From positions 1-28,585 of the forward strand of contig JABXKD010000047.1 in assembly GCA_013375475.1 (NCBI GenBank): a DNA stretch of 28,585 bases. The letters run 5' to 3'. The position numbers were made by a program, and so were the translations under genes. Origin of the DNA: Promethearchaeota archaeon. Lineage in GTDB: Archaea; Asgardarchaeota; Lokiarchaeia; Sigyniarchaeales; SOKP01. Below, one piece after another: positions 9,376-10,385 of the stretch; the stretch's first letter is position 1, and each line of letters begins with the position of its first letter. Under the pieces are notes generated by a model. The model was not told the DNA's origin. It saw only the letters and a program-made list of their open reading frames with translations, and searched no databases.

Positions 9376-9855
9376 GAAAATCCTTCTATTTAACAAACGA
9401 CAACATAATTATTCTTTTTCTTAAAAGTTAGCTACAATTCTAATTTGTTTTTTTATTCATTCGATCTGTTTGATATTTTTTATTTATATATGATCGTTAG
9501 TTTATCTCTTAAATTTTATTTTTTTGAAAAATTGGGCATAAGATGTTGAGAAATTAGTTCCTACAGCGGGAGGGTATGATTATGAAAGAATTCAGAGTAC
9601 TGAAGTTAAAAAGATTATTCAAAAAATTATCTCAAAAAGAAAGAACTAGGATTCATCATCTTAGTAAAATTTTTTAATTATTCTGCTTTTACTTTCTTAC
9701 TAAGTTAAGTCTATATTTTTTAAAACTTAGGACGTAAAAGATTACGGTTCCGATATACTAAAGATATTGGAAACTTTGGTCTGAATCAATTAGTTTGTTC
9801 TGAGTTATAGAATATAGGCTTAAAAATGTGAATTAAAAAAAAAATGATGAGTACT

Positions 9856-10385
9856 ATGAGCAAAACAACCAAAATCATTGTTAAGGCTCTTGTGACTGGA
9901 GGGAGAGAAAATTTATATTTCATAACTTTTCCCCTAATGCTTCAGGAGGGCCACCTATCGGGCCTGCCGTAGGACCGACAGGTATCAATATAAAAGACGT
10001 AGTAGATGCTGTTAATGAAAAGACAATGCTTTTCAAAGGTCTTACCGTCCCGGTTAGAATTGAGTGTGATCCTGAGACAAAACAATTTGAAATTTTCGTA
10101 GAAACCCCGAGTACAGCTTCACTGCTTTTAAAAGAATTAGGAATTGAAAAAGGAAGCATTAATAGTTCCGAAAAGAAGGCTGGAGATTTAACGCTTGAAC
10201 AAGTAATTAATGTAACAAATGCGAAAAAAGATATCTTTTTATCTAAAACGTTTAAAAATGCGGTAAAAACAGTATTAGGAACTGCTTTATCAGTAGGAGT
10301 GACCGTAGAAGGTAATGATCCTCGCGTGGTTCAAAAGAAGATTGATAACGGGGATTATGACGATAGAATTAAGGGGGAGATATAA
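9856..10385 (+). CDS. rpl11: 50S ribosomal protein L11 (uL11), join(9856..9905,9938..10385), 165 aa after removal of a 32-nt insert
   Basis: Exon 1 MSKTTKIIVKALVTGG and exon 2 ASGGPPIGPAVGPTGINIKDVV..NEKT..FKGLTVPV lie in different frames. First gene of the L11-L1-L10-L12 cluster. Alternative ATGs at 9844/9847. Confidence 0.93.
9906..9937 (+). other. Candidate BHB/BHL (tRNA-type) intron in rpl11 mRNA, 32 nt
   Basis: Central helix AGGG(9900-03)/CCCT(9932-35), 5' bulge AGA, intron stem GAAAA/TTTTC plus TTAT/ATAA, 3' unpaired AAT. Cutting after the second nt of each bulge gives GGG AG|T GCT in frame. Confidence 0.75.

Follow-up and report, generated by a model that had tools for sequence, protein, structure and literature searches.

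A candidate bulge-helix-bulge intron within the ribosomal protein L11 gene of an Asgard archaeon

The gene for ribosomal protein L11 (rpl11) of a Promethearchaeota archaeon (assembly GCA_013375475.1) is interrupted by a 32-nt AT-rich insert at positions 9906-9937 of the window, i.e. the whole stretch of 28,585 nt of contig JABXKD010000047.1 that was analysed. [quoted passage not shown] The rpl11 inserts are most likely mRNA introns, since they have the shape recognized by tRNA-splicing enzymes and similar inserts occur at four sites of the gene in relatives.

Structure of the interrupted rpl11 gene

The N-terminus of L11, MSKTTKIIVKALVTGG, is read from the ATG at 9856, and the remainder of the protein, ASGGPPIGPAVGP..., begins at 9939 in another frame, with the AT-rich stretch in between. 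The unspliced rpl11 frame terminates at a TAG at 9970-9972 and equals the listed open reading frame 9844..9972. Deletion of positions 9906-9937 joins 50 to 448 nt, yielding 165 codons and a stop codon, with a Ser codon split as AG|T. The two frames, the premature stop and the gapless 165-aa product had all been described in an earlier sequence-only reading of this DNA, and each was found as described, the restored Ser17 matching the intact orthologues. Exon 1 (9856..9905, plus strand) comprises Met1-Gly16 and the bases AG of codon 17. It was delimited by tblastn with an intact L11 from the same genus, residues 1-16 of which matched positions 1421-1468 of locus L001 (9856-9903 of the window), and in the alignment its start coincides with the ATG or GTG of the orthologues. 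The candidate intron (9906..9937, plus strand) is missing from intact orthologues; three further genomes (L043, L044, and L047) contain near-identical inserts. Exon 2 (9938..10385, plus strand), which runs from the third base of codon 17 to the stop codon, was identified by translation and Pfam. Translated from 9939 it gives 148 aa ending in the stop, with matches to Ribosomal_L11_N (9936-10088) and Ribosomal_L11 (10104-10307).

The intact orthologues of the same genus encode the same 165-aa protein with the motif GGSASGGPP. Orthologues had been expected to read GG-S-AS at the junction; when the first six intact orthologues of the genus were examined, five had ALVTGGSASGGPPIGP and the sixth had GGAAS. 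A protein 99% identical to exon 2 reads ...VTGGSASGG. Two 165-aa proteins of this likeness (99%), P0003 and P0004, may originate from either intron-less DNA or spliced RNA.

Predicted RNA motif and the pairing rule

In the pre-mRNA, the exon sequence AGGG (9900..9903, plus strand) would pair with the intron sequence CCCU (9932..9935, plus strand), four bases that end two before the end of the intron. The minimum-energy fold contains this central helix H in full, the least probable of its four pairs having a probability of 0.81. The 5' side would consist of the 3-nt bulge AGA (9904..9906, plus strand) and an intron hairpin (9907..9931, plus strand) formed by h' (GAAAA 9907-9911/UUUUC 9927-9931) and an inner stem (UUAU 9913-9916/AUAA 9922-9925). 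On the 3' side, the bulge AAU (9936..9938, plus strand; h = 0) would widen to a 6-nt loop because no exon-exon pair adjoins directly. A splicing endonuclease, probably a heterotetramer of catalytic and non-catalytic EndA subunits, would cut after the second base of each bulge, i.e. after 9905 and 9937, in line with the rule that cleavage falls between the second and third bulge residues (PMC2738675). RtcB would then join the exons, so that codon 17 reads Ser and the mRNA encodes a normal L11 of 165 aa.

The minimum-energy fold obtained by RNAfold retains AGGG/CCCU and UUAU/AUAA and favours a register with a 1-nt bulge (GAGAA/UUUUC) at -23.9 kcal/mol, while the register with the 3-nt bulge reaches -22.9 kcal/mol and is thus 1.0 worse. 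The folding energy of the 71-nt stretch was better than that of 200 out of 200 shuffles (z = -2.79). At the 5' splice site, the 3-nt AGA bulge is directly followed by the 5-bp h', as in BHB motifs. At the site of this insert (site A), the exon-exon helix h in the canonical register has 0 bp in 8/8 sequences of the genus, and the 3' bulge is not closed by an in-register h as in the strict hBHBh' form. Exon-exon pairing occurs in an offset position, involving on the 5' side (9885..9899, plus strand) either 9885-9891 and 9893-9895, as in the minimum-energy fold, or CUGG at 9896-9899, and on the 3' side (9942..9952, plus strand) UCA(G) at 9942-9945 and 9946-9952. As exon-exon pairing is only offset and leaves a 6-nt loop, we assigned the site-A motif to the relaxed HBh'/BHL form. 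Each element of the motif as first proposed is present in the sequence, and its description as a relaxed motif with an offset exon-exon stem was sustained. Sites B and D, described below, do have an in-register h of 2-7 bp.

A scan of 9500-10500 against Rfam (E≤1) returned a single chance-level hit, located outside the insert, and a group I or group II self-splicing intron or another described RNA family was rejected on these grounds. An insert of 32 nt is far below ribozyme size. ARAGORN without its intron mode found no tRNA within the window; a tRNA-Lys at 9751-9910 belongs to another contig (C234), and the match in coordinates is coincidental.

Comparison of rpl11 genes provided 51 distinct inserts at four sites, 18 at site A, 14 at B, 13 at C and 6 at D. 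Pairing of exon positions -6 to -3 of the 5' cut with intron positions -6 to -3 of the 3' cut was complete (4/4) in 45 of the 51 inserts and comprised three of four pairs in the other 6, compared to 1.7% and 17.5%, respectively, among 714 control registers. The rule holds for site A and fits the three further sites in related species. All 18 distinct site-A inserts have four pairs, and only in the register that restores the coding sequence. In the gene studied here, 9906-9937 is the sole register with 4/4 pairs, and the same register restores the Ser residue of the orthologues. The cut after the second nucleotide of each bulge, predicted from the sequence, is thus the only one that obeys the rule, and the compensatory pairing looked for in an alignment of rpl11 DNA was also detected. 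Helix H was paired to 100% in 17 distinct sequences, its first pair being A-U in 7, U-A in 7 and U-G in 3. The first three h' pairs were 94% paired, with two of them covarying (UA/AU), and CUGG/UCAG was 94% paired across the 17 sequences with three of its four pairs invariant. In the site-A alignment, 96.3% of the cells were paired, as opposed to 34-67% in slid-register controls; none of 500 shuffles matched the observed pairing percentage or covariation score, a significance that is overstated because the aligned sequences are kin. Minimum-energy folds computed without an alignment contained all four H pairs in 35 of the 51 inserts (A, 15/18; B, 8/14; C, 10/13; D, 2/6). The context of the 3' cut, two intron bases and one exon base, was AA|T or AA|A in 41 of the 51. 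A central TCG occurs in 41/51 inserts, compared to 10.4 ± 2.8 in shuffles.

We considered it improbable that the insert is removed from the RNA by another nuclease and ligase, or with the help of a guide, with the BHB-like shape being incidental. The 3' site is no canonical 3-nt bulge, and such an activity could recognize the central TCG, a feature left unexplained by the BHB model. However, the cuts implied by the coding sequence lie two bases past the 4-bp helix on both strands in all 51 inserts. The same geometry has been given for cbf5 introns (PMC2738675), and two-subunit EndA accepts substrates with relaxed motifs (PMC5829648; PMC12397907). In addition, the genome has genes for both enzymes. 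EndA is represented by two paralogues (two PF01974 genes). One is most similar to chain B of 3p1z/3ajv and keeps the Tyr, His and Lys residues; the other is devoid of the catalytic His. The two would probably form a heterotetrameric two-subunit EndA of catalytic and non-catalytic paralogues. RtcB is encoded as well (560 bits). The host endonuclease is therefore predicted to be able to take relaxed motifs. The genome is 100% complete, but ARAGORN identified only 29 tRNA genes, of which 14 contain introns, and tRNA genes of Asgard archaea are described as heavily interrupted (bioRxiv 10.64898/2026.10.13.758758). We therefore favour excision by EndA and joining by RtcB.

Distribution of the inserts and evidence from reads

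We surveyed 154 genomes of the order, of which 123 from one family (f1) and 18 from three others (f2-f4) gave counts. A split rpl11 was found in about 58-60 of the 123 genomes of family f1 with a match and in none of the 18 genomes of the other families. Within the genus, the gene was interrupted in 24 of 36 genomes with a match (24/24 checked in the DNA). Insert lengths are 28-38 nt; the four sites all fall within codons 17-34, and a single gene can hold as many as three inserts in about 80 nt. Their presence is patchy among close relatives: mapped on a tree of the 390-nt gene, it requires at least 13, 10, 3 and 10 changes at the four sites. If the rpl11 inserts are indeed introns, rpl11, a standard marker in phylogenetics and for genome completeness, would be mis-called or missed in roughly every second species of the family.

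It is very unlikely that the mRNA stays unspliced and the insert is crossed by ribosomal bypassing or frameshifting. Bypassing is known from gene 60 of phage T4 and from the mitochondrial 'byp' elements. As in those elements, the inserts are short and contain a hairpin, and in some, for instance site B in L024 and the second site in rps3 (see below), a stop codon lies just within the insert border. Ser17, however, is built from AG before and T after the insert, which hopping cannot achieve, and the 3' end of the insert offers neither a GGG nor an AGA codon that would match take-off with landing. The conserved trait is the covarying exon/intron pairing at -6 to -3, and not a correspondence between take-off and landing codons. 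Three bypasses in about 80 nt would be needed where a gene has three inserts, and a gene with two or three inserts could not be rescued by one frameshift or one internal start.

Finally, a broken or mis-assembled gene, be it a decaying pseudogene, an assembly artefact or one producing a truncated L11 that begins within or beyond the insert, is highly implausible: although the assembly has 288 contigs with 6.4% contamination and the public gene call at the locus (P0002) is a 156-aa protein beginning inside the insert, rpl11 exists as a single copy, leaving no intact second copy beside which this one could decay; the same or similar inserts recur in many separately named assemblies; interrupted rpl11 genes show strong purifying selection (dN/dS = 0.03-0.10, computable for 4/6 pairs), with no internal stop from codon 36 to the end in any of 106 rows; and the inserts at sites B, D and C fall 3' of the conserved GGxASGGPP motif, which a downstream start would lose.

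Three RNA-Seq runs (shares 0.06-0.10) and two runs that are probably DNA are on record, and four of these (X20, X22, X23, and X19) were examined at 90% likeness. The contigs spanning the junction derive from relatives that are 90-95% alike, with different upstream sequence. One contig from X19 omits exactly 9906-9937; as its upstream sequence is foreign and the library is probably DNA, it represents a relative without the insert. A contig from the X20 RNA has nine other letters in place of 9904-9944, encoding the Ser-Ala-Ser of a relative. Loose ends in X20 and X22 run contiguously through the position of site C, and none of the compared rpl11 loci has such DNA. This read-through is a weak hint of splicing in some relative.

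Other interrupted genes were sought in a census that set 2060 open-frame segments, drawn from 780 kb of three relatives, against the genome itself; 878 of the segments had ortholog-like matches. The census spans about one-fifth of the genome and covers the ribosomal-protein region twice; it is blind to very short exons and to stop-free in-frame inserts. That other split conserved genes might carry the motif was borne out: apart from rpl11, similar inserts were obtained in rps3 (two sites) and in one proteasome gene, all in this genome, with the second rps3 site fitting the helix rule poorly (2-3 of 4 pairs). The reverse census found none in 380 kb of two relatives. Further candidate rows of the census concerned C222 (twice), C110 and a 132-nt AT-rich insert in C269, and another a 30-nt in-frame insert without a stop near the start of rps3. 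Partial rps3 matches in G057, G015 and G001 proved to be contig ends and were discarded as inserts.

Tentatively, these inserts may represent one family of mobile mini-introns that was repeatedly gained and lost in housekeeping genes of a single Asgard family, at those glycine-rich codons that are most conserved, although we would give this proposal somewhat less than even chances. Its possible members would be 28-38 nt long, form a hairpin with a central UCG loop, end in ...AA at the 3' side and be hosted by rpl11 (four sites), rps3 and a proteasome subunit gene. On this reading, neighbouring introns would need to leave one mRNA in a set order because of the micro-exons of approximately 21-27 nt that they share. 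Such a family, if real, would offer a natural setting in which introns of protein genes are gained, lost and possibly spliced under regulation, in the archaeal group closest to eukaryotes.

Comparison with known splicing systems

A cbf5 pre-mRNA intron of Crenarchaeota was reportedly described by Watanabe in 2002. In our full-text literature search, neither an intron of this kind in a ribosomal-protein gene nor a later case in a coding region came up, in agreement with the sequence-only reading, which knew of none in rpl11 or in Asgard archaea; supplements of an Asgard tRNA preprint may hold relevant data. A passage in PMC2738675 puts the state of knowledge in 2009 as splicing confirmed for no archaeal protein gene besides cbf5, and a passage in PMC7714728 names the cbf5 intron of Crenarchaeota as the sole archaeal coding-region BHB intron reported as of 2020. 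If the rpl11 inserts are spliced, this class of mRNA introns would reach essential ribosomal-protein genes and Asgard archaea; one mRNA could contain as many as three of them in about 80 nt, and their presence would vary between close species.

As described by Yokobori 2009 (PMC2738675), the cbf5 intron resembles the rpl11 insert in being short, in its position within a protein-coding region, in a highly conserved codon, and in its relaxed ('unconventional') BHB motif. Its predicted cuts likewise fall between the second and third bulge residues, a link to hetero-oligomeric EndA exists, and presence and loss are lineage-specific (PMC2738675). In contrast to cbf5, the host genes here are those of L11, rps3 and a proteasome subunit, in the Asgard phylum, with four alternative sites within 18 codons, up to three introns per gene and a patchy occurrence among close relatives. 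Splicing of cbf5 was shown by cDNA, whereas the rpl11 inserts were recognized by comparison of DNA.

Non-canonical tRNA introns with relaxed BHB motifs (HBh', BHL), cut by (αβ)2 or ε2 EndA (PMC5829648; PMC12397907), are similar in the enzymes inferred, in helix-bulge geometry and in their small size, and the interrupted tRNA genes of Asgard archaea also have several introns per gene and repeated gains (bioRxiv 10.64898/2026.10.13.758758). Unlike in tRNA, the host RNA of the rpl11 insert is an mRNA, so that the exon half of the motif consists of codons and precision is checked by the reading frame rather than by the cloverleaf. At about 70 nt, the insert and its surroundings would be a compact natural substrate for probing the reach of two-subunit EndA. 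The BHB intron of Haloferax volcanii HVO_1309 (PMC7714728) is a further case of an mRNA serving as splicing-endonuclease substrate outside tRNA and rRNA; in contrast to the rpl11 insert, it is located in the untranslated 5' leader and interrupts no codons, and it was confirmed in vivo and in vitro.

In eukaryotes, IRE1/RtcB splicing of HAC1/XBP1 removes a short frame-changing mRNA intron by proteins only, independently of the spliceosome, with joining by a tRNA ligase. This splicing is also named in PMC13149111. The rpl11 insert would be alike in protein-only intron removal and ligation, whereas the IRE1 endonuclease and its recognition of stem-loops are unrelated. HAC1/XBP1 splicing is a stress-regulated switch; a regulatory role of the rpl11 insert, raised as possible in the sequence-only reading, would be conjectural, and the likeness between the two concerns the mechanism of splicing only.

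Interruption of rpl11 and borders of the insert

The gene encoding ribosomal protein L11 (rpl11) is the first of the L11-L1-P0-P1 row on the plus strand of the window. By sequence reading, its first 16 codons plus AG run from ATG 9856, translation places the remainder of the protein from 9939 in a different frame, and in the ORF listing the unspliced frame stops at TAG 9970-9972. The Pfam match to the L11 N-terminal model begins only at model position 9 of 58 and is the sole one in the genome (3.92 Mb, 288 contigs; 100% complete, 6.4% contamination). The extra bases are absent in the first six intact same-genus orthologues read. 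The interruption noticed in the sequence-only reading is real.

At the junction, these intact orthologues have ALVTGGSASGGPPIGP in five of six cases and GGAAS in one. The gap placed by MAFFT lies one base further right and would yield Arg. Shifting that gap one base to the left brings four exon bases into pairing with four intron bases; this register excises 9906-9937 and leaves a Ser codon split between AG and T. The residue of the relatives is thus chosen by the structural rule and not by the aligner, and the borders 9906-9937 proposed earlier hold. Likewise, ...VTGGSASGG is found in a public protein that shares 99% identity with exon 2 (9938-10385), and two further public proteins read GGAASGG. 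The spliced gene would measure 498 nt, corresponding to 165 aa. The public protein of this locus (P0002, 9915-10385), a 156-aa L11, starts at an ATA within the insert; automatic annotation therefore truncates rpl11 and drops its first 16 residues.

Separately, a conserved element was observed at 9730-9773, preceding the start of rpl11 by about 85-125 nt. It contains the two small hairpins CGUAA/UUACG and CCGAUAU/AUAUUGG, and an alignment of same-genus relatives shows compensatory changes in their stems; a search of Rfam (E <= 1) named no family for it.

Pairing rule and motif structure

A genus-wide scan for the rpl11 N-terminal domain covered 42 genomes and gave a match in 36, uninterrupted in 12 and interrupted in 24. 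All 24 interrupted loci were retrieved and aligned, yielding 32 inserts (31 distinct) at four sites: site A at codon 17, as in the window (8 genomes), site B after codon 24 (9), site D after codon 28 (1) and site C at codons 33/34 (14). Combinations occur as A+C in five genomes, B+C in one and A+B+C in one. In the latter (locus L040, genome G057), the three inserts within codons 17-34 are separated by micro-exons of about 21 and 27 nt. Each micro-exon supplies helix bases to two adjoining motifs, which suggests an obligatory order of removal.

Widening the set gave 68 inserts, representing 51 distinct sequences (A 18, B 14, D 6, C 13). In these we scored pairing in the protein-compatible register between exon positions -6 to -3 of the 5' cut and intron positions -6 to -3 of the 3' cut, counting G-U. 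All four pairs formed in 45 distinct inserts and three in the remaining six, all from site B, compared to 1.7% (4/4) and 17.5% (3/4) of 714 other registers. [quoted passage not shown] By RNAfold alone, the minimum-energy fold contained all four H pairs for 35 of the 51. The inserts are 28-38 nt long with 72% A+T, and the 3' cut falls between AA and A in 25 and between AA and T in 16 of the distinct sequences. CG is infrequent in these AT-rich inserts. A central TCG (relative position 0.33-0.60) occurs in 41/51, with all four sites represented (loci L001-L153), compared to 10.4 +/- 2.8 (maximum 21 in 2000) in composition shuffles, an excess that the kinship of the sequences overstates. The window's own insert lacks this TCG, which may be a mark of the inserts' common descent or a loop signal.

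At site A (18 aligned sequences, 17 distinct), pairs were counted for one structure that we specified. Of all cells, 96.3% were paired, compared to 34-67% in slid controls. The observed pairing and covariation score were reached by none of 500 shuffles, a control that overstates the case because the sequences are related; the slid control is unaffected by relatedness. Helix H was 100% paired and its first pair was AU in 7, UA in 7 and UG in 3, so that the third base of a Gly codon and an intron base change together. The intron stem switches between UA and AU at two pairs. The offset exon-exon helix CUGG/UCAG was 94% paired but is little informative, since three of its four pairs are invariant. 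For the window's insert, the structure with the 3-nt bulge lies 1.0 kcal/mol above the RNAfold minimum. Same-site inserts with compensatory pairing, a check put forward with the sequence-only reading, were thus found in related rpl11 genes, and the covariation of H and the excess of full pairing over control registers favour the BHB-type intron that it proposed. The rpl11 insert is a candidate BHB-type mRNA intron; this is by far the best reading, and we hold it to be very probable.

The rpl11 motifs are of the relaxed type. At site A the 5' half is canonical (H, 3-nt bulge and an intron-hairpin helix h' of 3-10 bp), with the in-register exon-exon helix (h) missing; at site B it is the 3' half that is canonical (h of 2-6 bp, e.g. 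GGGCC/GGUCC), with a displaced intron hairpin. Site D combines an h of 7 bp with an adjacent h' of 5 bp, and site C an h of 2 (1 in one sequence) with a hairpin offset by one base.

Distribution, gene integrity and inserts in other genes

The order-wide scan covered 154 genomes and gave rpl11 matches in 141; 14 matches lie outside those listed. Among the matches listed, split or stop-containing rpl11 was confined to one family (f1) with about 58-60 of 123 genomes interrupted, two cases being at contig ends, and was absent from all 18 genomes of families f2-f4 that gave a match. Within f1, the matches listed were interrupted in genera g1 (24-25/36), g22 (25/50), g21 (7-8/9), g17 (1/2) and g19 (1/1) and in none of eight others. 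These relatives belong to the Asgard phylum, and the 80 related loci are mostly from 'Promethearchaeota archaeon' MAGs that represent many separately named isolates. The L11 C-terminal domain was never split: 38 matches in 37 genomes contained neither a stop nor a second fragment, and the three partial matches are each located at a contig end.

Both a dead gene and an artefact were rejected as explanations. Between intron-bearing and other rpl11 copies, dN/dS was 0.03-0.10 in the four of six pairs for which it could be computed, the remaining two being lost to dS saturation; a stop from codon 36 to the end was present in none of 106 rpl11 rows, and the inserts recur across many assemblies. A quick gene tree of 390 nt, built from 106 rows (86 distinct) and weak at many branches, requires at least 13 (site A), 10 (B), 3 (D) and 10 (C) state changes, and its starred clades mix intron-free and intron-bearing copies. 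Gain, loss and recombination cannot be separated on a tree of this length.

A census of 878 ortholog-like frames (780 kb, three relatives) in the window's genome recovered rpl11 as a control and yielded two further genes, both on the minus strand, indicating that such inserts are rare. In rps3 (contig C122, locus L178), a 31-nt insert at 13800-13830 lies in the GKGG codons of the KH domain, with H AGGU/GCUU at 4/4 and a 3' end between AA and A. A second, in-frame insert of 30 nt with a stop codon (13711-13742) fits the rule weakly (2-3 of 4) and is common to a relative (G008, locus L174). Elsewhere in the 42-genome scan, KH matches of rps3 were free of inserts, three of them ending at contig ends. 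A proteasome alpha-type gene (C286, 1113-1144) carries an in-frame 30-nt insert with TAA after a conserved GG, with H at 3/4 and an adjoining 9-position hairpin; a relative's orthologue is uninterrupted. A second proteasome-like fragment (C286, 1759-2019, plus strand) contains TAG and TAA, and three other proteasome genes are intact. The inserts are not limited to rpl11, and they lie again in glycine-rich conserved motifs. Near C269 5858 (minus strand), an AT-rich, stop-containing stretch of about 132 nt breaks the alignment to a relative's 491-aa protein (68% identity); a longer insert, a gene boundary and a misalignment could each account for it.

Splicing enzymes, transcripts and known BHB introns

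The genome encodes two EndA proteins (PF01974; 99 and 70 bits) and RtcB (560 bits). The 200-aa EndA, which retains Tyr, His and Lys at the aligned positions, has its nearest structure in PDB 3p1z/3ajv chain B (E 1.8e-35), which we take to be the heterotetrameric enzyme of Aeropyrum pernix. The 202-aa EndA is nearest to 1a79 (E 5.5e-22), presumably the Methanocaldococcus jannaschii enzyme, and lacks the His at the corresponding position. According to PMC5829648 and PMC12397907, relaxed motifs of this kind require (alpha-beta)2 or epsilon2 endonucleases, and a preprint (bioRxiv 10.64898/2026.10.13.758758) reports two EndA paralogues in 44/60 Asgard genomes, together with tRNA genes that are very rich in introns. 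In agreement with the latter, ARAGORN found just 29 tRNA genes here, 14 of them intron-bearing, despite the completeness score of 100%; many are probably too interrupted for detection. In the window, ARAGORN reported no tRNA without intron mode and, in intron mode, a tRNA-Val with a 77-nt intron at 23223-23375.

RNA-library contigs of a relative (runs X20 and X22), with loose ends at window positions 9967 and 9996, cross site C uninterrupted. Such contiguous site-C DNA occurs in none of the compared rpl11 loci, and the nearest loci bear the site-C insert. These contigs hint weakly at splicing of the transcript in that relative.

A full-text literature search, covering main texts and few subscription journals, found no BHB intron in ribosomal-protein or Asgard mRNA. 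As far as the consulted passages go, PMC7714728 (2020) gives cbf5 alone as reported beyond its own 5'-UTR case, PMC2738675 (2009) mentions further putative cases as predicted but unconfirmed, and a 2026 review of non-canonical splicing (PMC13149111) mentions archaeal BHB for tRNA only. The candidate rpl11 introns would belong to the known BHB class, with unusual features at the population level.
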